Below, piece after piece: positions 5,243-38,967 of a stretch of DNA of 64,000 nucleotides. A program made the position numbers and the translations under genes. Source of the DNA: an uncultured bacterium (GTDB lineage Bacteria > SAR324 > NAC60-12); assembly GCA_965662845.1 (NCBI GenBank), contig CBFIJD010000005.1, forward strand, positions 1-64,000, given 5' to 3'. Under the pieces are notes generated by a model that was not told the DNA's origin, made no database searches, and was given only the letters and a program-made list of their open reading frames with translations. Position 1 is the first letter of the stretch. Every line of letters begins with the position of its first letter.

Positions 5243-5252
5243 GGAGATGTTC

Positions 5253-5828: not shown

Positions 5829-5837
5829 GCGCGCTGT

Positions 5838-5867
5838 GGAGTTCACTTTTGCCTGAGAGTGAACTCC
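5838..5867 (+). terminator. putative intrinsic terminator hairpin after the MCP operon
   Basis: Perfect 10-bp inverted repeat GGAGTTCACT-N10-AGTGAACTCC immediately after the stop at 5828; followed by a C/T-rich tract rather than a pure T-run. Confidence 0.45.
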
Positions 5868-6183
5868 CTCTCTCCCTCGTTTCCTACCCGACCTCCTCTC
5901 GCTTTTCTGTCTCCTCTCTCCCCTTCCAATCCTCACTCTCTGCTTGGTTTTTCTGCTGGGGAGCCTCGCGTCCTGCCACCTGTTTGGAAGCGTGGTTCAC
6001 TCCAGCAAATCGCTGCGTGATCACGGTGGTCTGCAGGCTTTGCATCCCTTCAGGGTGCGCCGCAGTTTTTTCTCCTTGATGAATGAAAATGGGCAGGCTG
6101 GGATGTTAGCTCATCGTTGACAGTAGTCAGCACATTTTTGTCACGCTGTCCCCTGAGCGGCGACGGAATCGGAGAGACACAAA

Positions 6184-7134
6184 ATGCGAGAAGTGGTTTT
6201 GCTGGACGGAGGATTGGGGCAGGAGCTGGTGCGACGTTCGCGGCAGCCGGCGCATCCGCTGTGGTCGCTGCAAGTAATGCTCAACGAGCCGGCGCTGGTG
6301 GAGCAAGTGCACGTGGAGTTTTTGCATGCAGGCGCACGAGTGTTGACGCTGAACACCTATGCGGCGACCCCAGAGCGCTTGGGGAGACAGAGCATGGAGG
6401 ATCAGTTTGTCGCGATCCAACAGCGCGCGATCGAGATTGCGCTGCGGGCGCGGGAGCGAGCGGCACAACCAGAGAAGATCCGGATTTCAGGTTGCCTACC
6501 GCCGCTTGTCGCGAGCTATCACCCAGAGCTGACGCCTTCCTTTGCGCAATGTCTGGAAGAGTATCGGCGCATCGTGGCCGTTGAGTGGGAGGCGGTGGAT
6601 TTGTTTCTGTGCGAGACGATGGCGTGTCAGGTAGAAGCGCAAGCGGCGGCACAAGCAGCGAGCGAGTCCGGCAAGCCCGCCTGGGTCGCGCTGACAGTAG
6701 AAGATGAATACCCGACAGAGACCCCACGTCTGCGTTCGGGAGAATTGCTAGAAGAGGTAGTGGACTCGCTGGGCGCCTTTGCCGTAGACGCGATCTTGCT
6801 CAACTGCTCCAAACCGGAAGCTCTCTCGCCTGCGTTGTCGATCTTAGCGAAACAGCCCCGACCGTTCGGAGCGTATGCCAACGGCTTCACCTCGGTGAGA
6901 GGGTTGCAGGTGGATGGGACGGTGGATGCGCTGCAAGCCCGTCAAGATTTGGGGCCGGAAGCCTACGCACACATCGCGCGGGCATGGGTGGAGCGAGGCG
7001 CGCGTCTCGTTGGAGGGTGCTGTGAAGTGGGGCCGTCTCACATCGCCGAGCTACACCGCCAGCTGCTTGAGCAAAATGTGCAGATCGCGTCAGACCTGAC
7101 GCAACGGCCTTTGCCGGCCAGCTCTGCGGCATAG
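6184..7134 (+). CDS. homocysteine S-methyltransferase family protein (MmuM-like)
   Basis: 'LLDGGLGQEL', 'LNTYAATPERLG' and C-terminal 'GGCCEVGPSHI' are typical of the Hcy-binding S-methyltransferase domain. Confidence 0.8.
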   Translation: MREVVLLDGGLGQELVRRSRQPAHPLWSLQVMLNEPALVEQVHVEFLHAGARVLTLNTYAATPERLGRQSMEDQFVAIQQRAIEIALRARERAAQPEKIRISGCLPPLVASYHPELTPSFAQCLEEYRRIVAVEWEAVDLFLCETMACQVEAQAAAQAASESGKPAWVALTVEDEYPTETPRLRSGELLEEVVDSLGAFAVDAILLNCSKPEALSPALSILAKQPRPFGAYANGFTSVRGLQVDGTVDALQARQDLGPEAYAHIARAWVERGARLVGGCCEVGPSHIAELHRQLLEQNVQIASDLTQRPLPASSAA

Positions 7135-23974: not shown

Positions 23975-25390
23975 ATGGCAAAACAAACTTACGATGCAGG
24001 CGTAAAAGAGTACCGCGACATGTACTGGACGCCGGACTACGTCCCACTAGACACGGATCTGCTCGCTTGTTTCAAGTGTACGGGGCAGGCCGGCGTGCCC
24101 CGAGAAGAAGTCGCTGCCGCTGTGGCCGCAGAGTCCTCCACAGGCACATGGAGCACAGTCTGGTCAGAGCTGCTGACAGATCTCGAATACTACAAAGGTC
24201 GGGCTTATCGTATTGAAGATGTTCCCGGAGATAACGAGTCGTTTTACGCATTCGTAGCATACCCCATTGATCTCTTCGAAGAGGGCTCGGTTGTGAACGT
24301 GCTCACCTCTTTAGTTGGGAACGTGTTTGGATTTAAAGCGCTGCGTCATTTGCGTTTAGAAGATATTCGTTTTCCCATCGCCTACATCAAAACTTGTGGG
24401 GGCCCACCGGCGGGTATTCAACTCGAGAGAGACCGCTTGAATAAGTATGGGCGCCCCATGCTCGGCGCGACGATTAAACCCAAGCTGGGGCTCTCGGCAA
24501 AGAATTATGGCCGTGCGGTTTATGAGTGTCTCCGCGGCGGCTTAGATATGACAAAGGACGATGAAAACGTGAACTCGCAGCCGTTTATGCGCTGGAGAGA
24601 TCGCTTTGAATTTGTGGGAGAAGCCATCCAAAAAGCGCAACAAGAAACGGGTGAGCGCAAAGGTCATTACCTGAACGTGACGGCGGCAACTCCTGAGGAG
24701 ATGTATAAGCGCGCGGAGTTCGCGAAAGAGGTGGGCTCGCCCATCATCATGCACGACTTCCTCACGGGGGGCTTCACGGCCAACACAGGTCTGGCGAACT
24801 GGTGTCGAGAGAACAGCATGCTCCTGCACATCCATCGCGCGATGCACGCTGTGATTGACCGCCATCCCAAGCATGGGATTCACTTCCGCGTGCTGGCCAA
24901 ATGTCTGCGCCTCTCCGGTGGCGACCACCTCCACACCGGCACCGTGGTTGGGAAGTTGGAAGGCGACCGTCAATCTACCCTTGGTTATGTAGATCAGCTG
25001 CGTGAATCATTTGTCCCAGAAGATCGCTCCCGCGGTGTCTTCTTTGACCAAGATTGGGGTTCGCTGCCAGGGGTGTTTGCGGTGGCCTCTGGTGGAATCC
25101 ACGTGTGGCACATGCCGGCTCTGGTCACCATTTTTGGGGACGATTCCATGTTGCAGTTTGGCGGCGGAACCCAAGGGCACCCTTGGGGGAACGCAGCTGG
25201 GGCAGCCGCGAATCGCGTCGCTCTGGAAGCTAGCGTGAAAGCACGCAACGAGGGGCGTGAAATTGAGAAAGAAGCTCGCGACATCTTGACAGAAGCTGCC
25301 CGCCATAGCCCCGAACTCGCCATCGCAATGGAGGTGTGGAAAGAAATTAAGTTTGAATTTGATACTGTGGACAAGCTGGACGTCTCTTAA
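23975..25390 (+). CDS. cbbL: RuBisCO large subunit, form IA
   Basis: Full-length 471-aa RbcL with catalytic motifs ('[24 protein letters not shown]' region, 'KPKLGLS'); AGGAG RBS upstream. Confidence 0.98.
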
Positions 25391-25438
25391 TTCGTAGCCG
25401 TTCAACATCACCAACCATCCTGTAAAGAGGACACTGCT

Positions 25439-25783
25439 ATGTCGATGAGTCACCAAATGGGCGATTTCCAAACCGCCCAAACGCTAGAGACCTTTGGTTT
25501 TCTGCCCAAATTCACGCAAGAAGAAATCTACGACCAGATCGCCTATCTCATCTCACAAGGCTGGACTCCAGCGATTGAACACGAGCACCCGGCGCGTTCC
25601 ACTAACCACTATTGGACGATGTGGAAGCTGCCGTTTTTCGGTGAGCAGAATCTCGACAATGTCATGAATGAGCTAGAAGCCTGCCGACGAGCATACCCTG
25701 ATCACCATGTGCGCTTGCTGGGCTACGATAACTATACCCAAAGCCAAGGGCTGGCTTTTGTCGTCTTTGAAGGCCGGGTGTAA
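25439..25783 (+). CDS. cbbS: RuBisCO small subunit, form IA
   Basis: 114-aa RbcS ('[11 protein letters not shown]', '[15 protein letters not shown]'). Confidence 0.95.
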
Positions 25784-25848
25784 GAGCAGGTCAGGATGTT
25801 GAAACAGGGCTTTTGTGTGAGGATTTTCAAAGATAATGGGGAGTTCTA

Positions 25849-28329
25849 ATGAGACAAAGCGATAGCGCAATGAGCGGTCGAACGTTGGCAAGGCAGAGAC
25901 GCAGAGCCTTGTCGGCTTCAGGCAAAACCTCAGCGATGACCCAAGCGAGTGGCGCTGCAGCCACGGCTTCCGTTCCAGCAGTCAAACGCTCGGCGGAGAG
26001 GAAGGCGCAGTCTGGTCGTGAGGCCTCATTAGCCCGCAGGAGAGCTTTGTCTAGCCACGGTAAAGTTGCGGAGACAAGCGGTGATCAGAGTCGCGCCGCG
26101 GCACGTCAACAAGCCGACGCAGCTGAACAGAACGCGGCCTCGGCTGACACATCCCCATCGTATGAAAGTTCAAGGGCCGCGCCTCGTGCCCGTCGTCCTC
26201 AGCACACACACACGAGCGCCGATTATGCGACGGCAGCGCGCCGCGCCTCTCGGGAGCGCCGCAGAGCTCTCTCTAGCAAAGGGAAGGTGGCAGACCGCAG
26301 CACAGACCGAACGAAAGCCAGCTCCGGAAAGTCTGCGCCCTCTGCTCCCATCGGCGGCTCGACCCACCCGCCCGAAACACCGGAATGTAGCTGCCAAAAA
26401 GACAACACACGGTCGGCGCCTCAACAGGCAGAGGTTGTGTCAACTTCGCGTGCCAACACCTCGACACGCCCACGGAGCAAAGCCCGACCCAAAAATGTGC
26501 ACACCGCGAGCTCAGGCCGGTCAGTCGCATTGGCTCGCCGAAGAGCCCAGTCCACTCGCGGAAAAGCCGGAATCAGCGCTTCAGGAATGTCAACGGCCCA
26601 GACCGCAAGAGCGCAAAACCCGCAGTTGACGAGCCGCGAATTAGCGAAAGCCATACGGGAACAAAACAGCCGCCGCGGCAAGGCCGGCCAAAAGAAATCC
26701 GAGCCAGCAGGACGCCAGCGCAGCGCAAAGCAACGGAACGCCGCCGCGAGTGACGCCAGCTGGAAAGTCGGCGCCAGCGAAACCGCGCGAGGTCAAACGT
26801 TAACGGGCACGATGATAGACCGGACGAACGCCACAACCGGTAATGACCAAAGCACCTGTCGCCACATCACGGGAACAGAGTACATGGGCGCAGAAATCTT
26901 TCGGGACTTTTGCCAGACCGAGCCTCCGATGACTCCAATGAGAGGGACCACGACTACAACAAGCCGTGGAAACAGCGTGTCAGGAAACCGAGTCGGAAGA
27001 AGCCAAAAGTTGACGGGCAACGAAGCTGGAACCTGCAAGAAGGTCACAGGGTCGGAGTACCTCTCTGCTGAAGAACACCAAGAATATTGCGGCACGAAAG
27101 GTTCGGCAACTCCCGCCAAGGTCACCTCCAGCCACACGGCGAAAGGCGAGAGGGTGACGGGCAACCCAGAAGCTCGCTCTCAACGAGCTACAGGAGCCGA
27201 AGTCGGCAGCAACCGCTTGCTCACAGGCACGCAATACATGTCTGCTAGCGAACCGGAGTCAAGAGCCCCCGCCAAGGTCGGCAGCAGCCAGACGCTGAGA
27301 GGCGGAAATGTGACCGGCTCCATGGTGGGGCGGTCTGCCAAAATGACGGGCGACGAACAAGGTGGGTGCCAGCGAGTTACTGGGGACGACTACCTCGGCC
27401 AAGAGCACTTCCAAGTCTTTTGCAAGACTCAGCTTGAGGCCAATGACCAGAAAGTTGGAGCGTCCCAAACCTTCAATGACCGGCAAGTGACCGGCACCAT
27501 GACGGGCCGTGGTGCTCAAGTGACCGGGGACGAACCAGGGACTTGTAAAACGGTTACAGGCACGCCCTACGCTGGGGTTGAGCAATACGATAACTTCTGC
27601 TCCCCGATGGAAAAGCAACTTCAGACGCAGCGCACCCAAGCCCCAAGAACACCTAGTGAGGCCGCGCCTTCAACAGCTGCTCAAATCGCCCCTGCTCGCA
27701 AGAGGATCGGCGCTGACCAAGACGCTTTGGAGGCCGTGAGCGGGACTTCATCTCCGCGCGACGAACAGCAGAAACTAGCGTGCGCCGCAGAGCCTGCCAC
27801 ACCAGAGAGCCCAGATTTTCCGCAAATGTTGAACTCACGTCCGCCATTGGAAGGAGCACCCACAGCCAACAGCAGTGACCGTGTCCCCACGGCAATGGTG
27901 ACGGGTTCCAGCTATGGACAGGGAAAGATCACGGGGCCTTTTGGCATGGCTACAGACAAAGTGACTGGGACTGATGAAGCGAGATTTGGCCACCAGAACA
28001 CCACTTCCCCTGCCAGCGCAGCTCCTACCGAAAGAGAAAGCTCGTCTGGCACAACCTCGGCTCCCAAAATCACAGGGGAGGGCATGGCTGCAGGCGGCAG
28101 AATCACAGGAGATGACTGGGAACGCGGAGAGCGCGTGACGGGTACGGAAGGCCGCTCCGTGCTCAGCCGAAATCCCACACGGCGTGGAGGGCCAATGTCG
28201 GCAATGGCGCCAACGCAGATGAGCAATCGTAACGCTGAAATTGAGCAACCCGTGAGCAAGGTGACGGGCAGCAGTGGCAACACCGCGAAAGGTGCCTTGG
28301 TCACTTACTCCGGCGGCGCTCGCGGCTAA
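25849..28329 (+). CDS. csoS2: carboxysome scaffold protein CsoS2
   Basis: 826-aa disordered protein: five N-repeats of the RuBisCO-binding motif (R..RRRALS..GK); M-repeats with VTG and paired Cys; C-terminal repeats ending '...KVTGSSGNTAKGALVTYSGGARG'. Confidence 0.95.
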   Translation: MRQSDSAMSGRTLARQRRRALSASGKTSAMTQASGAAATASVPAVKRSAERKAQSGREASLARRRALSSHGKVAETSGDQSRAAARQQADAAEQNAASADTSPSYESSRAAPRARRPQHTHTSADYATAARRASRERRRALSSKGKVADRSTDRTKASSGKSAPSAPIGGSTHPPETPECSCQKDNTRSAPQQAEVVSTSRANTSTRPRSKARPKNVHTASSGRSVALARRRAQSTRGKAGISASGMSTAQTARAQNPQLTSRELAKAIREQNSRRGKAGQKKSEPAGRQRSAKQRNAAASDASWKVGASETARGQTLTGTMIDRTNATTGNDQSTCRHITGTEYMGAEIFRDFCQTEPPMTPMRGTTTTTSRGNSVSGNRVGRSQKLTGNEAGTCKKVTGSEYLSAEEHQEYCGTKGSATPAKVTSSHTAKGERVTGNPEARSQRATGAEVGSNRLLTGTQYMSASEPESRAPAKVGSSQTLRGGNVTGSMVGRSAKMTGDEQGGCQRVTGDDYLGQEHFQVFCKTQLEANDQKVGASQTFNDRQVTGTMTGRGAQVTGDEPGTCKTVTGTPYAGVEQYDNFCSPMEKQLQTQRTQAPRTPSEAAPSTAAQIAPARKRIGADQDALEAVSGTSSPRDEQQKLACAAEPATPESPDFPQMLNSRPPLEGAPTANSSDRVPTAMVTGSSYGQGKITGPFGMATDKVTGTDEARFGHQNTTSPASAAPTERESSSGTTSAPKITGEGMAAGGRITGDDWERGERVTGTEGRSVLSRNPTRRGGPMSAMAPTQMSNRNAEIEQPVSKVTGSSGNTAKGALVTYSGGARG
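25873..26690 (+). repeat. CsoS2 N-repeat region (five R/K-rich RuBisCO-binding repeats)
   Basis: SGRTLARQRRRALSASGK / SGREASLARRRALSSHGK / ASRERRRALSSKGK / SGRSVALARRRAQSTRGK / SRELAKAIREQNSRRGK. Confidence 0.8.
26761..27650 (+). repeat. CsoS2 M-repeat region (VTG/Cys-pair repeats)
   Basis: Five ~40-aa repeats with ..TG..C(R/K).(V/I)TG..Y....(E/Q).(F/Y)C; the third repeat lacks the Cys pair. Confidence 0.75.
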
Positions 28330-28360
28330 TTTTTGAGTCTATGGCAAAAGAGATATCTCC

Positions 28361-29884
28361 TTGAATCGTAAATCTCGTCACAAGCGACTCGTTCCTCAGC
28401 AGCAAGTGAACGTGAGTCCTGCGCCGTTACGTCGACCAGGAGTGGTTCTAGCGGAAGCAAACCCTGCGCACGATTTGGCGTCAGCCCGAAACCACGCGCT
28501 GGTGGATCTTGAGGCGAATCGCCGGTTGTTCGCTTACGAAGAGAAAGTGAAGAGCGCGTTTGACAACGTGATTCCTGCGCTGAAGAAGATCTCTGTCATT
28601 CGTCATGATGGCGATTTTGAAAGGCAGGCCCAACGGATTGCCGAAGCAGAGCTGGGGTTTCGGCTCCCAGATTGGATTCTGGAAAACGTGTGGGTGAGTA
28701 AGCTAGATATGCAGCAGCTGTTCGCGTGGTCTATTTTTGAGACTTATCACCACTTTGCGAACCAATTTTATCGGGAGCAGCCATTGCAGGCCGCTGACGA
28801 TCATGAGTTCGAAGAGTTTGTGAGATTCTGCGGATTTCATGCGGTTGACATCACTCCTTGTGCAGACGGTCGCTTAGCTCATCTCATCAGTTATGTTTTG
28901 CGGTTACCGGATCAGTATGTGCGACGTAAGTCTTACGCTGGCGCTTTGTTTGACATTGAAAAAAATACGCAAAAGTGGGTGGAGGTTGAAATGTTGCGTC
29001 TCCGCAAAGCGCAACAAGATCCTACGCCAGAATCAACTAGATACTTAAAAGGGATCGCGTACCACTTCAGTTCCCGTGACCCCGAACATGAAGGTTGTGC
29101 TGCGCACGGTTCAGACACTTTAAAAGCAGCGCAAGCAGGGCTCAATCGTTTGCTTAGTTTTCAAGAAGCTGTGGAGAACAGCTTTGGCCGAGGCGCCTCG
29201 ATTGACTTGCTGTTGATGGGGCTAGATACCGACACAGACGCGATTCGGATTCATTTACCTGACGCCCAAGGTGACTTGTCGTTGCAACGCTTTGTGGACT
29301 GTATGGAACTATACGAAGCCACACAGGAGCTGTCGTTTCATCAAGCAGAACATCACCTGAAAAATGTGATTCTCGAAGTTTCACCAGAAATCGGGGATGG
29401 GATGCTCCGTTTCGTAAGTTACTTGATATTTAATAATTTTGATCAGATTGACTATGTAAGATCGTATCATGGTCATTATTACTCCGATATTGGTCACGCG
29501 GAGCGCTTCATTGGCGCGGGGGTTGGATTCAAAGAAATTCAGCTGCGGAACCTAATGTACTTTTCATATTTGAGTACGGTAGAAGAGGCGGCACAAGACT
29601 TAGATGTTGGGATTAAGATTTTCACTCATCTCAATCTCTCCAAGAGTTTACCGATCCCTGTGGTAGTGCGCTTTGACTATCATGGCCATGTGCCTGGGGC
29701 GAGAGACCGTGCAGTGGAGAAATGTCAACGAGTGGTTGCCGCAATCAATAGTCGTTATGCCGAACTCGCTCATACAGGGAAGCTACATACGCTCGAGGTC
29801 GTTAGAGATTGTCGGAGTAATGCGCCGCTAGAGATCCTGAATTGCAGTATCCGAGGTGGTGTCGAAGTAGGGAATTACGAATGA
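28361..29884 (+). CDS. csoS3: carboxysome shell carbonic anhydrase CsoSCA (CsoS3)
   Basis: 507 aa; beta-CA-like active-site motifs 'CADGRLAH' (CxDxR) and 'EGCAAHGSD' (HxxC); position after csoS2. Confidence 0.9.
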   Translation: MNRKSRHKRLVPQQQVNVSPAPLRRPGVVLAEANPAHDLASARNHALVDLEANRRLFAYEEKVKSAFDNVIPALKKISVIRHDGDFERQAQRIAEAELGFRLPDWILENVWVSKLDMQQLFAWSIFETYHHFANQFYREQPLQAADDHEFEEFVRFCGFHAVDITPCADGRLAHLISYVLRLPDQYVRRKSYAGALFDIEKNTQKWVEVEMLRLRKAQQDPTPESTRYLKGIAYHFSSRDPEHEGCAAHGSDTLKAAQAGLNRLLSFQEAVENSFGRGASIDLLLMGLDTDTDAIRIHLPDAQGDLSLQRFVDCMELYEATQELSFHQAEHHLKNVILEVSPEIGDGMLRFVSYLIFNNFDQIDYVRSYHGHYYSDIGHAERFIGAGVGFKEIQLRNLMYFSYLSTVEEAAQDLDVGIKIFTHLNLSKSLPIPVVVRFDYHGHVPGARDRAVEKCQRVVAAINSRYAELAHTGKLHTLEVVRDCRSNAPLEILNCSIRGGVEVGNYE

Positions 29885-30150
29885 AAATCTGCCAAGTTGA
29901 GAAACAGTTAGTATCGACCAATCGCATCGCTAGTTTTGAGCACAAACATCTCCTAGTTGTCAGAGATGGATCGACCCAACTTGTCGCTGTAGACGCAGTT
30001 GGGTGTAGAGTAGGAGATTGGGTGATTTGTGTGGGGAGCTCAGCGGCGAGAGAGGCGGCTGGTAGCAAAGAATATCCAAGTGATTTAACGATCGTCGGTA
30101 TTATCGATCACTGGCCTCCTGAAGAGGAAAAGAGCGAACCAACGGGTTAA
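29881..30150 (+). CDS. csoS4A: carboxysome vertex (pentamer) protein CsoS4A (EutN/CcmL family)
   Basis: 'MKICQVEKQLVSTNRI...AVDAVG...GSSAAREA' is typical of CcmL/EutN; ATGA overlap with the csoSCA stop. Confidence 0.9.
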   Translation: MKICQVEKQLVSTNRIASFEHKHLLVVRDGSTQLVAVDAVGCRVGDWVICVGSSAAREAAGSKEYPSDLTIVGIIDHWPPEEEKSEPTG

Positions 30151-30152
30151 TT

Positions 30153-30398
30153 ATGGAAATCTTTCAAGTGGAGAGATCACTCTTTTGTACCTGTCGCATT
30201 GACGGCCTGAAACAGATCAGCTTGCGTGTCCTTCGAGATAGCCGAGGACGGCGACAAGTCGCTGTGGATCCTGTGGGGGTCCGTCAGGGGAATTGGGTCT
30301 TTACTGTCAATGGTTCCGCAGCGCGTTATGCCGCAGGAGATTTCAAAATTTTAACCGACTTAACTATCGGTGGTATTATCGATAATTGGGAAACCTGA
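30153..30398 (+). CDS. csoS4B: carboxysome vertex protein CsoS4B (EutN/CcmL family)
   Basis: 81-aa EutN/CcmL-family protein directly after csoS4A. Confidence 0.9.
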   Translation: MEIFQVERSLFCTCRIDGLKQISLRVLRDSRGRRQVAVDPVGVRQGNWVFTVNGSAARYAAGDFKILTDLTIGGIIDNWET

Positions 30399-30456
30399 GA
30401 ATCTTGTTCAGGTAGTTGATTTTAATATTACTCATTGTGTTAATCAGGAGGTTTGA

Positions 30457-30747
30457 ATGGCAACAGAAAGCTATGGAATTGCGTTAGGGATGATCGAGAC
30501 GCGCGGACTTGTGCCGGCAATTGAAGCCGCAGATGCAATGACAAAAGCCGCCGAGGTGCGTTTGATTGGTCGTGAATTTGTCGGTGGGGGGTATGTGACT
30601 GTCCTCGTTCGCGGGGAAACCGGCGCTGTAAACGCTGCTGTGCGCGCAGGAGCAGACGCTTGTGAACGAGTGGGAGATGGGTTGGTCGCGGCTCATATTA
30701 TCGCTCGCCCACACCGCGAAGTGGAGCCCGTCCTTGGCAATAAGTAA
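30457..30747 (+). CDS. csoS1: carboxysome shell hexamer protein CsoS1 (BMC-H), copy 1
   Basis: '[29 protein letters not shown]...[12 protein letters not shown]' is a canonical BMC domain. Confidence 0.95.
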   Translation: MATESYGIALGMIETRGLVPAIEAADAMTKAAEVRLIGREFVGGGYVTVLVRGETGAVNAAVRAGADACERVGDGLVAAHIIARPHREVEPVLGNK

Positions 30748-30805
30748 TTCTTACTTGTGACGCTGACGAACTGAATTTTATCAATTTCGAAAAAGAGAGA
30801 ATACC

Positions 30806-31117
30806 ATGTCGAATGAATACGGAATCGCGCTGGGAATGATTGAGACACGCGGATTAGTCCCCGCAATTGAAGCCGCAGATGCGATGACAAAAGCTGCCGA
30901 GGTACGCTTGATTGGTCGTGAGTTTGTCGGTGGGGGATATGTGACCGTTCTAGTCCGTGGGGAAACCGGCGCCGTAAACGCCGCTGTGCGCGCAGGGGCA
31001 GACGCTTGTGAGCGGGTTGGAGATGGTTTAGTAGCCGCGCACATTATCGCCCGCCCACACCGTGAAGTAGAACCTGTCTTGCCGACAAGTGAAATCAGTT
31101 CCTCTAAGGTCTCTTGA
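30806..31117 (+). CDS. csoS1: carboxysome shell hexamer protein CsoS1 (BMC-H), copy 2, with a short C-terminal extension
   Basis: Protein identical to copy 1 over the BMC core while the DNA differs at many synonymous sites; C-terminal tail '[11 protein letters not shown]'. Confidence 0.95.
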
Positions 31118-31147
31118 TTTGTTTCTGAACGGTAGAGTGAGGTTAGA

Positions 31148-31636
31148 GTGATGATTTCTGCTCATACAGATGCCCTTGTTTTAGGGTATCTAGGCCGAGC
31201 CTTAAGTCTGGCATTCTCTGCCGTTCAGTTATACACCACTCATGCTCAATTAGTCGCATACTGGGGGTTTCGCAAAGAAGCGGACGACTTCTCCACCATC
31301 GTGCAAACTGAGATCAAGCACACCGAGCGCATTACTGCTCGGATGATCTCTCTGGGGGTGGCGCCAAACGCATCACAATTGCGGACGGTTCCATTAGGAG
31401 AAAGTCTTACAGCGCTGATGAAGCTTGGCATACAACTTCAACAAGAACAGGTGGGCTTCTATGCGGAAGCAGAGAGTTATTGTCACAAACAAAACTTTGA
31501 AAATGACAGAATTTTCTTTGCTCAAATTTTGGAAGAAAAACAGCGTGATCTCCAAGAGTTGGAGACCTGGTTTCACTCACTGCGTCCTGTAAAGTCCAAG
31601 CAACAGACTGGAAAGTCTCGCCGAAGTTTCGAGTGA
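31148..31636 (+). CDS. bacterioferritin-like (ferritin-like domain) protein of alpha-carboxysome loci
   Basis: 162-aa four-helix ferritin-like protein; conserved position after csoS1 genes, as in proteobacterial cso operons. Confidence 0.75.
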   Translation: MMISAHTDALVLGYLGRALSLAFSAVQLYTTHAQLVAYWGFRKEADDFSTIVQTEIKHTERITARMISLGVAPNASQLRTVPLGESLTALMKLGIQLQQEQVGFYAEAESYCHKQNFENDRIFFAQILEEKQRDLQELETWFHSLRPVKSKQQTGKSRRSFE

Positions 31637-31660
31637 TTTTTCGCCACACTACGAGGATTT

Positions 31661-31915
31661 GTGATGAATTCTTGGAAGGAACGTAAGCGGCCAAACCGAT
31701 TGGAAGGACGCTACGAATTTTCAAACTATGAGAGCTTACGAGACTTCTTAGACCGAGCTGCTGAAATCTCAGAGGCAGAGGGCTTTTACCCAGATCTTGG
31801 ATTTGGAAAAGACTATGTGAATGTGACCATTCACGCCGAACAACCCGACTCAGAATTGAACGAACAGCAACGAGAATTTGCGAACAAGCTAGACCAATTA
31901 TTTGCCGCAAACTAG
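31661..31915 (+). CDS. pterin-4a-carbinolamine dehydratase-like protein (alpha-carboxysome RuBisCO assembly factor, acRAF)
   Basis: 84-aa PCD/DCoH-like fold ('YEFSNYESLRDFLDRAAEISEAEGFYPDLGFGKDYVNVTI'); conserved position in cso operons. Confidence 0.8.
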   Translation: MMNSWKERKRPNRLEGRYEFSNYESLRDFLDRAAEISEAEGFYPDLGFGKDYVNVTIHAEQPDSELNEQQREFANKLDQLFAAN

Positions 31916-31959
31916 ACGTACATTCCGTTGAATAATTTCCTTGTAAAGATGGGCGCCCG

Positions 31960-32181
31960 ATGAATACGCAAGAGAAAGCCACGCCAGAAGAATCACCGGT
32001 TGAAAATCAGAAAACCGCCGCGACTACTGCGTTAAAGTCTTCTGCTACCGAAGCAAGAGCGACAGACTCCGGTGTAGGAACTGTGGTCTCAACTAGCCAG
32101 CCCGCGACAGGAGAGGGTGAGCCAGCAAAGAAGACGCTGACAGGCGCTTTTCCGCGTCGTCCTCGTGTATGGCCAGATTAA
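31960..32181 (+). CDS. small intrinsically disordered protein (possible McdB-like), uncertain
   Basis: 73-aa low-complexity T/A/S/E/K-rich ORF ending '...RRPRVWPD' (Trp near the C-terminus); weak RBS; sits where mcdA-mcdB lie in proteobacterial cso loci. Confidence 0.3.
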   Translation: MNTQEKATPEESPVENQKTAATTALKSSATEARATDSGVGTVVSTSQPATGEGEPAKKTLTGAFPRRPRVWPD

Positions 32182-32300
32182 AGTAAACTACAAAAGACTG
32201 CGAAAGTAACGCCCCCAGCCTGCTAACAGAAGCCAGATTTTGGCTGCCCTCCATAAAACTTGGATTGCCTCGATCCACTTGTTTCGATGATGTCGTCTCG

Positions 32301-32891
32301 CTAGAGTGTCGCGCCTGTGTAGTCCTCATATCGAGGGGCACGTACTTGTAGTTTTCGGGTTTTCTCCAGCATTCGATAAGTAGAGCGGTTGTTGTTGAAT
32401 CGCAAAGTTTGATGAAGCGGAACCCAGATAACTTGATGCGACTCGTCATTGCCGGGTACAGGCAAACTCGGATCAATTTCCACCAAAAATCGAATATCAA
32501 AATGCTCATGACGCGCATCGTCGGGGGTGGGTTCGATGGTGTGAATGTCCACATCAAATAAGGCGTCACTTATGAGGCGAATGGAGTCTTGTGGCAGCCC
32601 GGTCTCTTCCGAAGTTTCTTTCAAAGCGACCTTCACAATGTCGGCATCTCCATCGGCGTGACCTCCAGGCTGGAACCATTGACCTAGCTTTTTATGGTGC
32701 AACAAAAGCACATGCTGTCGATCTGGGCTGACAACCCAAGCAGAGCCCGTGACATGACCGATGTGAAGCTCTCGATCAAAACAATCTTCATGCTGCTGGA
32801 CAAAAGCGAGTGCCCGCGCCACATACGCAGCCTCGTCCATAAAGCGAGTGTGATAGTCGCTGAGTAAGCTTAATAATTGAAGCCGATGCAT
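32301..32891 (-). CDS. NUDIX hydrolase
   Basis: Nudix box 'GGHADGDADIVKVALKETSEETGL'; last gene of the sulP-csoS1D-nudix operon (5-nt gap to csoS1D). Confidence 0.8.
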   Translation of the reverse strand: MHRLQLLSLLSDYHTRFMDEAAYVARALAFVQQHEDCFDRELHIGHVTGSAWVVSPDRQHVLLLHHKKLGQWFQPGGHADGDADIVKVALKETSEETGLPQDSIRLISDALFDVDIHTIEPTPDDARHEHFDIRFLVEIDPSLPVPGNDESHQVIWVPLHQTLRFNNNRSTYRMLEKTRKLQVRAPRYEDYTGATL

Positions 32892-32896
32892 AGCGA

Positions 32897-33511
32897 TTAA
32901 GTCCCTGATGGATTGTTGACTGCTACAGTTGCTGCTTGCGCGGCCTCATCAATAGCACCTTCTCTCCCTGCTAAAATAAGTCGTCCAAAGGCTCCTACCG
33001 CTCTGACGTCAATCAAAGAAATATCAGCTGCTTTTTCCGCTTGGTTTGCCGCATATACAATATATCCAGCAGGCTCTGTTTCTAAAATAAACATGCTCTG
33101 GCCGGGTAAGATCATATTTCCCCGTCGATCTTGACGATTAATGAGCACAGTATGATCTGGGGTCATACCTCGGATCGTTTCTTTCCATGCAATCTTGCAC
33201 GCCTGACGATCGGACTGTGTGGCTCCCATCGCAGAAAGAATGGCTCGCCCTGCCTCCACGACATCGCTTTGATCTCGCTGATGAATCACCATGGAGCCAT
33301 AAGCGCGCTCTACAACCTGCTGCGCCAAGTGAACACGAGTGGCTTTGAGCGCGCGGTCGGTGAGTCGATGAACTGCCATCCCCGGAGAAACTTCAACCCA
33401 AAGACAAGCATCACCAGGCACGGGAAGAAAGCCCTGAGAAGCTGTTGAGATGTAAGCGGCTAGTTGGGGTTGAAGCGCGTCAATGTAAACATAAGTACGC
33501 AAGCGGATCAT
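32897..33511 (-). CDS. csoS1D: tandem permuted-BMC-domain shell protein CsoS1D (CcmP-like pseudohexamer)
   Basis: '[55 protein letters not shown]' closely parallels the CcmP/CsoS1D N-terminus; 204 aa with two permuted BMC domains. Confidence 0.8.
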
Positions 33512-33519
33512 ACAGTGCT

Positions 33520-35163
33520 CTATGATAAAATAATGTTGGCTCTTTCCAGCGCTTCTTGTCGGGTTGTGAGAATATTTTGTTCGCCAACTTGCTGCAAAAT
33601 TCCCATCTTCTCTAAACGCTGACGAACACTGGGCTGCAATCCGACGACAAAGACAGGGCGTGATTTCTCTAAATCTTCTAAGATCATTTGTTCAATTGCA
33701 AGAGATGAGGAGACTCCTAGCAAGGGCACTTCTGTAAAGTCTACAATGAGGACTTGATGATCCGTTAAGATAGCATACTGTCTCGATATCGCTTTAGCGA
33801 CTCCAAATATTAGAGGGCCTCCCAACGCAAAGACTAATACTTTCCCTTGCGCCTGCTCCATCAAAACTTGTTCATCTTTCGTCAGCCGATGTGAGCTGTT
33901 GTGATCTCGGATCGCTTCTAACGATTGAGACTGTATCTCGACCATCCGCTCTATGGTCAACAAATTCGCGATAAATACTCCAATGGCAACGGCTGTGATT
34001 AAATCAACAAACACGGTCAGTAAGATCACACCATACATCATCAGCGCTGCACGAGTCGAGACGTGATGTGCTCGCTTGAGAAACGACCAGTCGATGATGT
34101 CCATCCCGACCTTAATCGCGATTCCTGCGAGTACTGCGAGTGGTATATGCGCGGTTAGCTTAGCCGCCCAGAGCAGCACAATTAAAAGAATGAGTGCTCG
34201 CGTAATACCAGAGAGCGCGGAGCGTGCGCCAGCTTGGATGTTGACAACGGTTCCCATCGTTGCGCCAGCTCCGGGAATGCCTCCAAATAAGCCTGCGAAT
34301 AGATTACCGATGCCCTGCCCAAGCAGCTCTTTATCCGAGTTGCTTTGTCGTTGTGTCAGGTTTTCAGCGATGACAGAGGTCAATAATGCGTCAATACTAC
34401 CCAGCACCGCTAGCATGATTGCATCCACAACCATGCTTTGCCATTGGTCTAAGGAAAAGTACGGCAGTTGTAATTCTGGTAATCCCATTGGGATGGGGCC
34501 GATTTGACGAATGCTTTGCCCTTGTAAAAACCAAACGGCGACTAACGTCGCCACAACGAGCGCGACTAATTGAGGAGGTAAGTATCGTCCCCATGTCTTC
34601 GGAAAAAAGATGATGAGGCTAAAAGTTAAGACAGCGAGGGCGGTCTCTGCAGGATTGATCGCGGCGATGAGATCGGGTAAGGAGCTGATCGTTCCAATGA
34701 CACCTCCCGGAGGGGGGGCTTGTCCTAAGATGGGGCCTAGTTGCAGGATGATTAAAATCACGCCAATCCCCGTCATAAATCCAGAGATGACGGTGTAAGG
34801 CATCATCGTGACATAGCGGCCTAGCTTGAGCGCGCCGAAGATCATTTGGAATACTCCGGCGAGCATGACGACCGTGAAGGCCATCGCCATGCCCTGCTCA
34901 GGATCTGCCGCGATTAAACTGGCAATCACGGCCGTGATGATGACCGTCATCGGGCCGGTCGGTTCGGATATTAAGGTGGGAGTGCTGCCAAACAAAGTCG
35001 CAAACAGCCCCACGAGGACAGCCCCGTAAAGACCAGCCGCTGGGCCTGCTCCTGACGCGACCCCAAACGCTAATGCCATTGGAAGGGCAATGATTGCTGC
35101 GGTGACTCCGCCAAAAATGTCTCCCCGAAGATTGTCAAACCGGATCTCATTCAACAGCTGCAT
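33520..35163 (-). CDS. SulP-family anion transporter with C-terminal STAS domain (BicA-like candidate bicarbonate transporter)
   Basis: 547 aa; sulfate-transporter TM core plus STAS ('[19 protein letters not shown]...'); 8 nt upstream of csoS1D; GAGGGGGA RBS. Confidence 0.85.
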
Positions 35164-35349
35164 TTCATGTCCCCCTCTTCGACGTTTAGATGCTCTTTTT
35201 TTATTATTTCTGTGTTCTATATCGCCGCTATTAAATATTTCTGCAACGATAGATTTCGGATTTTAATGCTCAAATACAGACGTTTGATCGATTTACCAAC
35301 TTAAATTTGAACCAAGGCACGGTCTTTAGATTTCGTTAAAAACATTGCG

Positions 35350-35359
35350 TTGACTAAAG
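35350..35359 (+). promoter_or_regulatory. TTGACTAAAG motif in the sulP upstream region (shared with the cbbL upstream region)
   Basis: Identical 10-mer at 23830-23839; AAATTTGAC and GATTTTCAGG elements also recur in both AT-rich leaders. Confidence 0.3.
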
Positions 35360-35570
35360 CGGTATCAAGGCAATTTTAGCATGAAATTTGACGCCGCTCA
35401 TCGCAGCAAGATTTCAGTAGATTTTCAGGGGCGACGGAGGGGGATAGTTTGTTGTCCTTGCGGACGAGCGCCGAGCCGCGGGAACGGTTCGACGCTTTTT
35501 CGGGGGTGGGCTCTAATCTCGCAGCGATCTCGACGCGTGCGGCCTTTGAGGTCGCCGGATTTTGCGTGTT

Positions 35571-36452
35571 TCAGGAGGCCGCTTGCCGCCAATCGTCGAT
35601 GTCCTCCCGCAGCCCTTCAAGGGTGCTGGCTTTGAGCGGTTCTGAGAGAGAGAGCCTTAGGAACTCTTCTTCGCGGTTCCATTGATCGACCTCGCCAGTG
35701 TGGGCAAACACGACCAACTCATCGGTGTCTACTACGCCCACGCTGATTCCCTGCTCTCCCGGTTGAGTCCAGAGCAGCGTGTCTTCTACTTTCTGAATGC
35801 GTTGGGTGACTTCCTCAATCAGTTGCAAGACCTGCATCAAAAGCTGGTCTCGAGGCGCGTTGTTGATGCCTGCTAGCGCCTGCTGGAGCTCGGTGCGTGC
35901 CTGCTCTTCGTTGACGTCTTCACTGAGGGCGCAGCTCCAAACTTCATGGGCCCCCCCTGCAGAAGCATACCGAACGGTCAACCAGGCGCGTTCCAGTCCG
36001 CCCATGCTCCGAATGTCTTCAAACTGCACCAACACATCGAGCACGCGTTCGATCCCGAAGGGGCCTTCGGGCAGCTCATGCCGCCACACTCCTTGCCGCT
36101 CTGTGGCCGCAAAAGGAAATTGTTCATAGAGGACACGGAAGAGCACTTCGAAGTGCTCGCGCGCGCGCTGTCGCAGACCATATTGATAGGTCTCCCCGTG
36201 GTGCAAGCGCTGTAAGTGGGTACGGACGGCCTCATGTTCTTCTGCTGGCAAATGCGGAGCACAGTGCTCCCAGTGGACTTCGGGGGCGTAGTGCTGCTCC
36301 ATGTATTCTGGAACCGAGATACGAAAGAGCGGGGCAGCATCGGCGTCATTGCCAGAGAGCACAATCCACTCTTGGTGCATTAGCATTTCCAGTAGCGCGC
36401 GTTCTGCGACGTGTTGCTGTTGGGGAGTCAAATCAAAAAAAGAGACAGGCAT
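35571..36452 (-). CDS. hypothetical protein
   Basis: Long ORF with coding-like composition; no recognisable domain; start set at MPVSFFD. Confidence 0.45.
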   Translation of the reverse strand: MPVSFFDLTPQQQHVAERALLEMLMHQEWIVLSGNDADAAPLFRISVPEYMEQHYAPEVHWEHCAPHLPAEEHEAVRTHLQRLHHGETYQYGLRQRAREHFEVLFRVLYEQFPFAATERQGVWRHELPEGPFGIERVLDVLVQFEDIRSMGGLERAWLTVRYASAGGAHEVWSCALSEDVNEEQARTELQQALAGINNAPRDQLLMQVLQLIEEVTQRIQKVEDTLLWTQPGEQGISVGVVDTDELVVFAHTGEVDQWNREEEFLRLSLSEPLKASTLEGLREDIDDWRQAAS

Positions 36453-36489
36453 GAGAATCGATTGCAAAAGACGGTTGGAAAGAAGGCCT

Positions 36490-37053
36490 TTACTTGACGG
36501 AGGGAGTGACAGGCTGATGATAGACGGCATGAGAGCGCAACTGAGAGAGATACATTTGGTCGATGACTTGTAAGTGCCGACGTTCTTGCTGCAGGGCTGC
36601 TCCTGTGCCCTCGAAGCGAACCAGCGCTCTCTGAAACGCCGCTAGATGTTGCACGCCGCGCAGGCGTTGCCACCAGCGGGCGTTTTGCTGAACGCGATAC
36701 ATTGTCTTCCAGAGTTGCTCGTGCTCCTGACGCAGCCGCAAGAACTTCTGTTGGTCATTTTGCCAACGATGCCGCAACTGATTTTCCCAGCGCAGCAGCT
36801 GTTCTTCGTGTTGCTCCAGCGCGGCTCGTTGCGCTTCGTCAATGTGGGCGCCTTGCGCTTGCAAGTGATCCAGCAGCTCGTTGACTTGGCGCAACGCTTG
36901 GGATTCTGGCACGGACTCCTGTGGAAAAATCGCGAGCGGATCTCGGCTGAACAGCCAACGCAGGAACCACACCGCTAACACCACAGCGGCGATCAACAGG
37001 AGAATGAAGCCGTAAATAGAGACACGAAAGGCGACGTCGACCCATGCTTCCAT
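36490..37053 (-). CDS. membrane-anchored coiled-coil hypothetical protein
   Basis: N-terminal TM ('IYGFILLLIAAVVLAVWFL') followed by Q/R/E-rich heptad-like sequence. Confidence 0.45.
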   Translation of the reverse strand: MEAWVDVAFRVSIYGFILLLIAAVVLAVWFLRWLFSRDPLAIFPQESVPESQALRQVNELLDHLQAQGAHIDEAQRAALEQHEEQLLRWENQLRHRWQNDQQKFLRLRQEHEQLWKTMYRVQQNARWWQRLRGVQHLAAFQRALVRFEGTGAALQQERRHLQVIDQMYLSQLRSHAVYHQPVTPSVK

Positions 37054-37065
37054 GCGGGGTTTTTC

Positions 37066-38967
37066 TTAGAGGCGGTTGCTCATCGCCAGCGGCGCTTCTT
37101 CTGGGACAGGCGACAGCAAAGGAATCAGAGGTGGCAATGTGAGCGATTGCTGTATCGCAATCGGGTCATTTTGAAGCTGAAACTGACGCAGCGTCCGCTG
37201 ATATGCTGTTTGGTCATTCAATTGGCGATAGACGGTGACCAGTCGATCCAAGAAGAGAGTTTGAAAGGCCGACTCGTTCCGCAGCGCGTTCTCCAGCAAA
37301 ACCCGAGCTTTCTCAAATTGACGCGTGACTAAATACGATGAACTCAAAGCCTCCGTCAAATATTCTTGTCGTGGGTGCCGCTCTAAGCCGCGCACCAAGA
37401 CTTCTTGGGCGGGCTGTTCTTGTCCTCGGTAACGATAAATGTCGGCGACTAAGCGATGCGCGAGACCTTGGGATTCTTGCCGCGCTAAGAATGCTTCGGC
37501 GAGCACGAGGGCTTCTTCTGGGCGGTCTAACTGCAACAGGGTCATCGCGTGCAGATATGTGCTCTCCCAGTGGAAGGGAAAATCTTGTGTGAGCTCAGAG
37601 CTGAAGACAGCGGCCTTGGCGTACTGTCGTTGCAGATACAGTACCCTCGCCAGAGAGAACCGGAGCGCAAAAGTCTCTTGCACCACGAGCGCCTGCCGCA
37701 GCAAATTCTCAGCTTGGCCATAGCGTCGCTGTGAAACGAGCACATCGGCCCGCAAGGTCAGCAGATCTACGTTGGTAGGATCCTCCGACTGCAAATCAGC
37801 AACCGCAGCCTCCACGCGCTGGAACTCTCCGCGCATTAACTGACGCCGAGCCTGCAACAAACGATAAGGCAGTGGACGATCATCCAGCTCGAGTGCTTGT
37901 CGTAACGCGAGATCTCCTTGCAAAAAGTCTCGACGCTGAAACAACAAGGAAGCTTGCAGAAAAAACAGGTCGGCGCGGCGGTTATCCAGCTCCAAGCCTT
38001 GCTCTACATACCGCAGCGCTTGGGCGTAATCTCCTCCTTGCAAGCTCAGTTGTGCGAGACCAAGCAGCGCTTCGACGTTGGCGGGCTCACGACGCAGCAG
38101 CTCTTCCAGCACTTGCCGCGCGGCGTTGTTTTGTCCCCGGCCGCTGAGCAACAGCGCATAGATCATCTGATCTTCCGGTTCGAGCCGTCCCATGCGCGCT
38201 AGCTCTTTGATCCGCCCAAGGGCCTCGTCTTCTTGCTGTTGTAAGTAGAAGATTCGGAGCTGCTCTCGCAGTACCTCAACCCACTTGGGGTCTTGCTCTA
38301 AAAGCTGCTGCGCCAAAATTGAGGCTGGATAAAAATTGCTCTGCGCGATGTAGACGCGCAATTTCAGCAGCTGTCCTTCTCGGTTAGACGGCTCGAGCAG
38401 CAAGAGCCTCTCGACCGCCTGTAGCGCGTTTGGATAGTCCTGCTGTTTGAGATGCACACGCGCCAGTTGGAAGTATGCTTCGCTGTAGCGCTCATCTCTT
38501 TGCAGCACATCTTCTAAAGCGACTAGCGCCCGCTCATACTCGCGGATCTGTTCATAGGCTAGCGCGAGTTTGAGATAGAGCGAGATTCGGTCTGCGTCGA
38601 CTTGTAGGGCGGCGTTCCATTCTTTGATGGACTCTGCATAGCGGCCCTGGGCGTAGAGCACGCTGCCTAACAATTCCAAGTATTCAGGGTTGAGCGGCGT
38701 CTCTTGGACCGCGGTGCGCGCCCAGTGTTCGGCGTCGGTGTGCTCTTGCTGGTAGTGCAGCGCTCGCGCGAGTTCAAACGCGGCGTCGGCGTCGCGTTGA
38801 TCTTCGCTCAGGCGCTCCCGCTGCTGTTCTTGAAACTCCACTACATTCGCCCGGTTGAGGGGTTGACGTGGGATTGGGAGTGGAGCGCTGGTGCAGCCGT
38901 GCCAAACCAGACTCAAGCCGAGCAGGGGCGCGGCCCAACGGAGGTTAGGGGACATGTGTGACCACAT
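37066..38967 (-). CDS. TPR-repeat protein (secreted/lipoprotein-like)
   Basis: Signal peptide, then >10 tandem TPR motifs (W-LG-Y-A---A-P patterns throughout). Confidence 0.7.
   Translation of the reverse strand: MWSHMSPNLRWAAPLLGLSLVWHGCTSAPLPIPRQPLNRANVVEFQEQQRERLSEDQRDADAAFELARALHYQQEHTDAEHWARTAVQETPLNPEYLELLGSVLYAQGRYAESIKEWNAALQVDADRISLYLKLALAYEQIREYERALVALEDVLQRDERYSEAYFQLARVHLKQQDYPNALQAVERLLLLEPSNREGQLLKLRVYIAQSNFYPASILAQQLLEQDPKWVEVLREQLRIFYLQQQEDEALGRIKELARMGRLEPEDQMIYALLLSGRGQNNAARQVLEELLRREPANVEALLGLAQLSLQGGDYAQALRYVEQGLELDNRRADLFFLQASLLFQRRDFLQGDLALRQALELDDRPLPYRLLQARRQLMRGEFQRVEAAVADLQSEDPTNVDLLTLRADVLVSQRRYGQAENLLRQALVVQETFALRFSLARVLYLQRQYAKAAVFSSELTQDFPFHWESTYLHAMTLLQLDRPEEALVLAEAFLARQESQGLAHRLVADIYRYRGQEQPAQEVLVRGLERHPRQEYLTEALSSSYLVTRQFEKARVLLENALRNESAFQTLFLDRLVTVYRQLNDQTAYQRTLRQFQLQNDPIAIQQSLTLPPLIPLLSPVPEEAPLAMSNRL

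Follow-up and report, generated by a model that had tools for sequence, protein, structure and literature searches.

A NUDIX hydrolase gene as the stable partner of csoS1D in alpha-carboxysome loci of a large gammaproteobacterial clade

Results

The csoS1D-NUDIX locus

The stretch of DNA analysed here (hereafter the window) comprises positions 1 to 64,000 of contig CBFIJD010000005.1, from the genome assembly GCA_965662845.1 of an uncultured bacterium. It contains a compact minus-strand unit of three genes, coding for a BicA-like transporter of the SulP/STAS type, for the carboxysome shell protein CsoS1D and for a NUDIX hydrolase, which faces a plus-strand cso operon (Table 1). The gene order of the operon is cbbL, cbbS, csoS2, csoSCA, csoS4A, csoS4B, two copies of csoS1, a bfr-like gene and a PCD/acRAF-like gene. 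The three gene identities, their spacing of 5–8 nt and their convergence on the cso operon had been proposed in an initial annotation of the window, and the map of open reading frames (ORFs) and the family searches agree with them. The comparison with other genomes described below showed that the stable core of this unit is csoS1D followed by the NUDIX gene, while the BicA-like gene varies from locus to locus and occurs in roughly a third of them.

Table 1. Coordinates of the minus-strand unit and of the facing cso operon in the window.
Feature	Position	Strand	Basis
BicA-like SulP/STAS anion transporter gene, 547 aa (first gene of the unit)	33520..35163	-	ORF and Pfam/NCBIfam/PDB
sulP-csoS1D junction, 8 nt, from sulP stop TAG to csoS1D ATG	33512..33519	-	sequence read directly
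csoS1D, tandem-BMC (BMC-T) carboxysome shell protein, 204 aa	32897..33511	-	ORF and Pfam/PDB
csoS1D-NUDIX junction, 5 nt, from csoS1D stop TAA to NUDIX ATG	32892..32896	-	sequence read directly
NUDIX hydrolase gene, 196 aa, Q0TTC5/3FCM-like family	32301..32891	-	ORF and Pfam
Convergent spacer, 385 nt, from end of PCD-like gene to end of NUDIX gene	31916..32300	.	ORF map
Proteobacterial-type cso operon	23975..31915	+	ORFs; Pfam on near-identical metagenome contig; Ferritin and Pterin_4a matches

A near-identical metagenome contig from the Joint Genome Institute (JGI) was available for comparison, and the ten cso, SulP, CsoS1D and NUDIX proteins compared are 98–100% identical to those of the window. 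The nearest named genome is that of Ectothiorhodospiraceae bacterium BW-2, with identities of 94% for CsoS1D, 79% for SulP, 79% for the NUDIX protein and 81% for CbbL. The analysis took the source to be an uncultured autotroph of the Gammaproteobacteria. An AGGGA motif resembling a Shine-Dalgarno (SD) sequence lies within the final codons of csoS1D, ahead of the NUDIX start codon. The hairpins in the convergent spacer are weak and terminator-like, and do not rise above those of shuffled sequence; likewise, a promoter and terminator scan of positions 31600–35800 gave counts close to those of shuffled sequence (4 vs 3.7 and 7 vs 5.0), and hence no usable operon boundaries. No RNA family was found by an Rfam scan of positions 31500–35900 with E-values up to 1.

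Conservation of the csoS1D-NUDIX pair

The linkage was examined reciprocally, using CsoS1D alone as the seed and taking one genome per species. The best 80 of at least 540 loci were kept (78–87% CsoS1D identity), and 78 of them have sequence downstream of csoS1D. The 80 loci include Chromatiaceae, Thioalkalivibrio, Thiodiazotropha, Sedimenticolaceae, Thiogranum and Ectothiorhodospiraceae, together with metagenome-assembled genomes (MAGs) labelled as Burkholderiales, Litorivicinaceae, Piscirickettsiaceae and Thiotrichaceae. In 71 of these 78 loci csoS1D is directly followed, on its own strand, by an orthologous NUDIX gene (51–71% identity); the median gap is about 14 nt, with 62 gaps of 23 nt or less, and an SD-like motif is present at 40 of the 71 junctions. 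The arrangement is not due to chance, because it recurs in so many other genomes, and the conservation of the linkage in related genomes, on which the initial annotation had made its reading depend, is clear from these figures. It should be noted that 71 of 78 expresses stability within a large clade rather than 71 separate events, and that the diversity of the neighbourhoods is the stronger argument.

The same picture was obtained when six homologues of the NUDIX protein, with identities of 60–99%, were looked up individually (P0001, P0002, P0009, P0051, P0070 and P0121): csoS1D was immediately upstream, on the same strand, in all of them.

The pair was found in at least seven different neighbourhoods. 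The triad of sulP, csoS1D and NUDIX converges on a cso operon, as in the window, on metagenome contigs L004 and L005; in BW-2 the triad converges on, and abuts, not a cso operon but the genes cbbL-cbbS-(102-aa ORF)-cbbQ-cbbO (L001 10566-16106). In other genomes the cso operon is followed by a gene for a SulP protein of 713–717 aa in the same direction, a LysR gene and then the pair; or the pair immediately precedes cbbL and the cso operon; or it converges on genes for P-II and DabA. In Thioalkalivibrio versutus it stands on its own with no cso gene nearby, flanked by genes for a recombinase and an AhpC-redoxin protein. Thiocystis violacea and Imhoffiella purpurea are further carriers of the pair. 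Convergent cso genes are located downstream in 30 of the 57 pair loci with enough sequence, and neither cso genes nor a BicA-like gene were present within 6 kb in 35 of the 71. The csoS1D-NUDIX pair persists, that is, across a large gammaproteobacterial clade regardless of its surroundings.

The seven loci in which the NUDIX gene is missing belong to Thiohalocapsa, Lamprobacter and relatives, and look like the result of one loss, because all of them share a slightly longer CsoS1D. In Thiohalocapsa halophila, the place of the NUDIX gene after csoS1D is taken by a convergent gene, which was judged rhodanese-like from its sequence, no family search having been run.

The most divergent clade member that could be placed (P0122, 53% identity) is encoded without csoS1D. 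Its gene has cbbL on one side, in divergent orientation, and on the other a gene for a class II fructose-bisphosphate aldolase, of which it lies directly upstream (L178 1-3082). This case and that of BW-2, two in all, hint at a selective tie of the NUDIX clade to RuBisCO-based autotrophy more broadly. Among the sampled cases, no close orthologue (> 55% identity) occurred in a setting other than csoS1D or RuBisCO genes.

The NUDIX hydrolase

The NUDIX protein matched the Pfam NUDIX family with 51.5 bits (cut-off 21.1). Its Nudix box occupies residues 77–99, GHADGDADIVKVALKETSEETGL, in which the catalytic residues E92, E95 and E96 are kept, as is G98. Compared with the consensus GX5EX7REUXEEXGU, the box carries Ala in place of the first Glu and Lys in place of Arg, and both departures are also found in the protein of PDB entry 3FCM. 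The AlphaFold2 model, with a predicted local distance difference test (pLDDT) score of 90.3, has the alpha/beta/alpha fold of the superfamily and matched 3FCM over its whole length, with shared architecture and shared active-site residues at an identity of 24–25%; the next structural neighbours are hydrolases of diadenosine tetraphosphate (Ap4A) and diadenosine hexaphosphate (Ap6A). In NCBIfam there was no equivalog for the protein, and only sub-threshold matches to CoA pyrophosphatase, NadM-Nudix and YtkD were obtained.

The entry 3FCM is Q0TTC5 of Clostridium perfringens, which in a screen of 74 compounds preferred 8-oxo-dATP (kcat/Km 2.8e6 M-1 s-1), followed by 8-oxo-GTP (1.2e6 M-1 s-1) and 8-oxo-dGTP (4.3e5 M-1 s-1), with cleavage mainly at the alpha-beta bond (PMC5158307). 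Unlike the window enzyme, whose activity is predicted, Q0TTC5 comes from an anaerobic heterotroph and has no carboxysome context. Judging from these comparisons, the window enzyme is likely to be active with the general specificity of its family, and oxidised or non-canonical purine nucleoside triphosphates (NTPs) are its likely substrates.

When 1.84 billion representative proteins were searched, the csoS1D-linked NUDIX proteins collapsed into very few clusters at 50% identity (292, 248 and 199 bits), below which the scores drop to about 165 bits and the identities to 40–47%. The wider family amounts to 174 clusters at E <= 1e-30 and occurs in Ignavibacteria, Melioribacteraceae and Opitutus. 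One such homologue could be placed, in Ignavibacteria, where it is found between truA/msrB and a gene for a binding protein, an unrelated context.

The active sites of 71 csoS1D-linked sequences (that of the window and 70 orthologues) and of 114 out-group representatives were compared. A conserved His/Asp/Glu constellation is common to both sets. The clade-specific positions are only about a dozen and mostly peripheral, and a remodelled active site in the csoS1D-linked clade was rejected for this reason. The possibility that the N-terminal helical hairpin (residues 1–33) serves as an encapsulation peptide was likewise discarded, as the hairpin is part of the fold in 3FCM and in heterotroph homologues.

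The transporter and the shell protein

The first protein of the unit showed the Pfam domains Sulfate_transp (324 bits, residues 12–377) and STAS (41.6 bits, residues 438–538). Its best NCBIfam match is the BicA equivalog, aligned over residues 1–542 of 547, with a score of 851.5 bits, to be compared with 259 for generic sulP and 240 for DauA. In the PDB, the membrane domain of BicA (6KI1) was matched at 555 bits, the next match being at 139, and the STAS domain of BicA (6KI2) at 92 bits. By these scores the protein groups with BicA and not with sulphate or dicarboxylate carriers, as the initial annotation had supposed. The likeness to BicA, the cyanobacterial Na+-dependent bicarbonate transporter of the SulP type, thus extends to domain architecture, near-equivalog score and closest solved structure. 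The window protein differs in falling just below the NCBI equivalog cut-off of 880, in being proteobacterial and in that its transport activity is predicted only; in addition, unlike BicA and the other SulP transporters of dissolved inorganic carbon (DIC), it is encoded 8 nt from a csoS1D-NUDIX pair.

This close spacing is specific to the lineage. Among the 59 csoS1D-NUDIX loci with enough sequence, a BicA-like gene is present upstream on the same strand in 19, usually at 100–730 nt from csoS1D rather than at 8 nt. The gene is therefore optional in this position, and the initial annotation overstated the case in suggesting 'stoichiometric co-expression' of SulP with CsoS1D. SulP-family bicarbonate transporters have already been described in autotrophic Proteobacteria (PMC10880623), so that the association of a transporter with csoS1D is known biology; what stays constant is the csoS1D-NUDIX pair and not the combination of sulP and csoS1D. 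The genes after csoS1D in a Thiobacillus MAG are a convergent one for a 550-aa SulP protein, one of the LCIB-like carbonic anhydrase type (a faint match) and a second, longer SulP gene (L177 5637-10630), so the clustering of SulP genes with csoS1D extends to other clades.

As for CsoS1D, the window protein is, on the sequence evidence, a typical member of its family. A local Pfam scan detected the C-terminal BMC domain alone, as expected for a protein whose first domain is cryptic; precomputed Pfam data for an identical protein list both CsoS1D_N and BMC, and the closest NCBIfam family is CcmP. Full-length alignments with the structures of CsoS1D from Halothiobacillus neapolitanus (7DHQ, E 4e-85, 66% identity, residues 2–198) and from Prochlorococcus MED4 (3F56, E 1e-79, 62% identity, residues 2–200) revealed tandem BMC domains, the N-terminal one being the cryptic one. 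Residues E68-R69, in the motif VERAYGS, align with VERAFGS of 3F56 and 7DHQ and are invariant across the five sequences of one alignment; by our own count, we take them to be the pore-gating Glu-Arg pair E120/R121 of the MED4 numbering. The window gene also resembles those of MED4 and H. neapolitanus in being encoded apart from the main cso operon (PMC12918739). It differs from them in being the middle gene of a three-gene unit, with the NUDIX gene next to it; in the H. neapolitanus-type clade csoS1D comes after cbbQ-cbbO or a LysR gene, and is not accompanied by a NUDIX gene.

Limits of the association

The latter clade was reached with a second query, the H. neapolitanus CsoS1D taken from the PDB alignment (66% identical to the window protein). 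No NUDIX gene was found by csoS1D in any of its four sampled loci, the H. neapolitanus locus itself not having been retrieved. In a Halothiobacillus-like MAG the order is SbtA, P-II, a hypothetical gene, LysR and csoS1D; in Thiothrix nivea, LysR and csoS1D; in Nitrobacter, cbbQ, cbbO, csoS1D and a Trypsin_2 gene; and in the Thiobacillus MAG, cbbQ, cbbO, csoS1D and the convergent SulP gene. The association of csoS1D with the NUDIX gene is therefore clade-specific. The Trypsin_2 gene, which codes for a serine protease, lies 5 nt downstream of csoS1D in Nitrobacter (L176 5639-6466), and another one is found near csoS1D in the Halothiobacillus-like MAG (L174 1433-2260), so that it may be another recurrent neighbour of csoS1D in the clade without NUDIX.

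The initial annotation knew of no described NUDIX partner in carboxysome loci, and our literature searches for NUDIX in carboxysome, microcompartment and csoS1D contexts, including the terms MutT, pyrophosphatase and ADP-ribose, likewise returned nothing relevant; in the Ferrovum genome paper, a nudix enzyme is mentioned under DNA repair only. Plausibly, the pair went unmentioned because it is absent from the sampled loci of the clade of H. neapolitanus, the best-studied chemoautotrophic model. For alpha-carboxysome loci of a large clade of Gammaproteobacteria, the csoS1D-NUDIX pair is a robust accessory feature that has apparently gone undescribed.

A parallel in alpha-cyanobacteria

Metagenome contigs were also searched with the MED4 CsoS1D sequence, yielding 65 alpha-cyanobacterial contigs that continue for at least 400 nt past the end of csoS1D. 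Every one of them has a gene of the Ham1p_like family (PF01725) tail-to-tail with csoS1D, at a distance of -1 to 123 nt. The Ham1/ITPase family consists of pyrophosphatases for non-canonical purine NTPs, e.g. inosine and xanthosine triphosphate (ITP and XTP). Ham1 and the window NUDIX protein are accordingly alike in being encoded immediately beside csoS1D and in their predicted nature as house-cleaning NTP pyrophosphatases. They differ in fold and family (PF01725 vs PF00293), which are unrelated, and in that ham1 is on the opposite strand and not co-transcribed with csoS1D. The NUDIX domain was the sole match in the window protein, which has no Ham1p_like domain, and the relationship is one of analogy rather than membership. 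In short, two unrelated enzymes of one predicted functional class adjoin csoS1D in the two great alpha-carboxysome lineages.

In nine freshwater Cyanobium-like contigs (L149, L150, L152, L156, L158, L160, L165, L170 and L171; positions ~3800-6500), csoS1D and the convergent Ham1 gene are followed by sbtA as the next gene, just upstream of the gene for the RuBisCO large subunit. As in the window, the trio combines a shell pore, an NTP pyrophosphatase and a bicarbonate transporter, although the enzyme and transporter families are unrelated. Ham1 has been reported to be always present in these loci, with unknown function (PMC4207490), and to occur at low abundance in purified alpha-carboxysomes of Prochlorococcus (PMC12918739). 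The latter source assigns to Ham1 a 'putative histone acetyltransferase domain', which, the cyanobacterial gene matching Ham1p_like PF01725 (ITPase/RdgB family), looks like a mix-up of names.

Other features of the region

The convergent spacer contains a 73-aa ORF (31960-32181, plus strand) without family match, which is called as a gene on metagenome contig L005, not on L004. In the cso operon, the two csoS1 paralogues (30457-30747 and 30806-31117, plus strand) are identical across about 90 residues and differ at their ends alone, pointing to a recent duplication or to gene conversion; the antisense ORF at 30781-31044 can almost certainly be dismissed as spurious. Immediately upstream of sulP and in its orientation lie two ORFs of 319 aa (35571-36530, minus strand) and 187 aa (36490-37053, minus strand), which had no Pfam or NCBIfam matches and each of which is annotated as a gene on the near-identical JGI contig; they are preceded by a gene for a 633-aa multi-TPR protein (37066-38967).

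Discussion

The region is best read as an accessory operon of the CO2-concentrating mechanism (CCM) whose conserved core would be a two-gene csoS1D-NUDIX module, to the front of which a BicA-type bicarbonate transporter gene appears to have been fused in the lineage of the window. The three genes may be co-transcribed, and csoS1D and the NUDIX gene are probably translationally coupled, to judge from the AGGGA motif in the last csoS1D codons and the SD-like motifs at the orthologous junctions. SulP would import HCO3- into the cytosol, and CsoS1D would supply the alpha-carboxysome shell with its few large, gated pores. The NUDIX protein would act as a Mg2+-dependent pyrophosphohydrolase with the specificity of the wider family, of which the characterised relative cuts 8-oxo-dATP as well as 8-oxo-GTP at the alpha-beta bond. 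According to this reading, selection would maintain the co-expression of a nucleotide-cleaning NUDIX enzyme with CsoS1D and, less strictly, with the RuBisCO genes, in a manner that parallels Ham1.

We estimate at roughly 55% the probability that the NUDIX enzyme has a real functional tie to the physiology of the carboxysome or of the Calvin cycle. A more specific proposal, which we put forward tentatively and regard as rather doubtful, is that pyrophosphatases of non-canonical purine nucleotides, represented by NUDIX in many Gammaproteobacteria and by Ham1 in alpha-cyanobacteria, are overlooked accessory enzymes of the alpha-carboxysome working with the CsoS1D pore, recruited independently from two families. 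They might dock on CsoS1D or enter the shell, where they could destroy damaged or inhibitory nucleotides before these pass through or block the pore, or poison the ATP-dependent RuBisCO activase inside the shell.

Several points weigh against a carboxysome role. The identity to the characterised relative is only 24–25%, and the active-site residues, being the same as in heterotroph homologues, give no sign of a carboxysome-specific chemistry. The promoter and terminator scans are uninformative. The 80 loci are the closest relatives of the query and phylogenetically non-independent, and the seven loci that lack NUDIX seem to form a single subclade. The absence of the gene from the four sampled H. 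neapolitanus-type loci means that the enzyme is not needed for alpha-carboxysomes in general. As to the cyanobacterial parallel, Ham1 is convergent with csoS1D, and the sampled cyanobacteria are narrow and highly syntenic, so that its position could reflect general synteny; moreover, Ham1 may be the cyanobacterial housekeeping copy.

A rival explanation that we consider unlikely, though worth serious attention, is hitch-hiking: an ordinary MutT-like sanitiser would have settled behind csoS1D in the ancestor of the clade, and would have been kept there by the shared low and steady expression, with no carboxysome role. It would account for the occurrence of the wider family in heterotrophs and in unrelated contexts, as in the truA/msrB case of Ignavibacteria, for active-site residues that are unchanged between linked and unlinked groups, and for the house-cleaning nature of the nearest characterised relative, and it agrees with the fact that other alpha-carboxysome lineages do without NUDIX and that one subclade has lost it. 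It is harder to reconcile with a pair that survives at least seven rearrangements of its surroundings and persists far from the cso operon, with orthologues of > 55% identity that, in the sampled cases, were seen in csoS1D or RuBisCO contexts alone, with a 53% relative that is again beside RuBisCO, and with a second, unrelated purine-NTP pyrophosphatase that adjoins csoS1D in cyanobacteria.

The association with RuBisCO genes, exemplified by the BW-2 triad abutting cbbL-cbbS-cbbQ-cbbO and by the divergent homologue between cbbL and the aldolase gene, could also point to a function in metabolite repair, in which the NUDIX enzyme would destroy a tight-binding sugar-phosphate inhibitor of RuBisCO or convert ADP-ribose to ribose-5-phosphate for the regeneration of ribulose 1,5-bisphosphate. 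A precedent would be CbbY, the HAD-family phosphatase of xylulose 1,5-bisphosphate (XuBP) encoded in cbb operons. The likeness to CbbY is conceptual only, both being damage-control hydrolases tied genetically to RuBisCO genes; CbbY acts on a sugar bisphosphate, while the window enzyme is a Nudix pyrophosphohydrolase of a family that acts on nucleotides. The removal of sugar-phosphate inhibitors, such as XuBP and analogues of 2-carboxyarabinitol 1,5-bisphosphate (CABP), had been suggested in the initial annotation, and found no direct support here: inhibitors of this type are bisphosphates without a pyrophosphate bond, none of the NUDIX substrates named for the structural neighbours discussed here is known to be such a bisphosphate, and the sole relative of the same architecture prefers 8-oxo-purine NTPs. 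In favour of ADP-ribose, a substrate that the initial annotation also considered, there is an NCBIfam match to the NadM-Nudix ADP-ribose pyrophosphatase domain, weak and far below cut-off. The ADP-ribose pyrophosphatase subfamily has a proline 16 residues after the Nudix box, where the window protein has FDVDIH and no proline. With active-site residues common to heterotroph homologues as well, a repair function of either kind appears very improbable.

The tight coupling to csoS1D specifically is in keeping with a signalling function, in which the NUDIX enzyme would degrade Ap4A, guanosine tetra- or pentaphosphate ((p)ppGpp) or an adenine nucleotide that gates the CsoS1D pore or acts on the STAS domain, thus tuning permeability or DIC uptake to the energy status of the cell. 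The Ap4A and Ap6A hydrolases that follow 3FCM among the structural neighbours are in line with this idea, as is the statement in a 2026 review that the gating control and the cargo of the CsoS1D pore are unknown, ligand-linked gating having been reported for BMC-T proteins of beta-carboxysomes (PMC12918739). We nevertheless consider a signalling role very improbable.

A nucleotide-cleaning enzyme tied to CsoS1D, the reading we prefer, would bear on the alpha-carboxysome shell protein that is least understood: a conserved and probably co-translated enzyme partner, together with the Ham1 parallel, would provide a handle on its gating. It would also bear on the rebuilding of the CCM in E. coli and crops, which uses minimal gene sets from model organisms without the NUDIX gene. 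Even if the pair were only a frozen operon, the picture of these loci would still be corrected, in that their constant unit is csoS1D-NUDIX rather than sulP-csoS1D. The csoS1D-NUDIX pair represents a testable lead on the function of CsoS1D.

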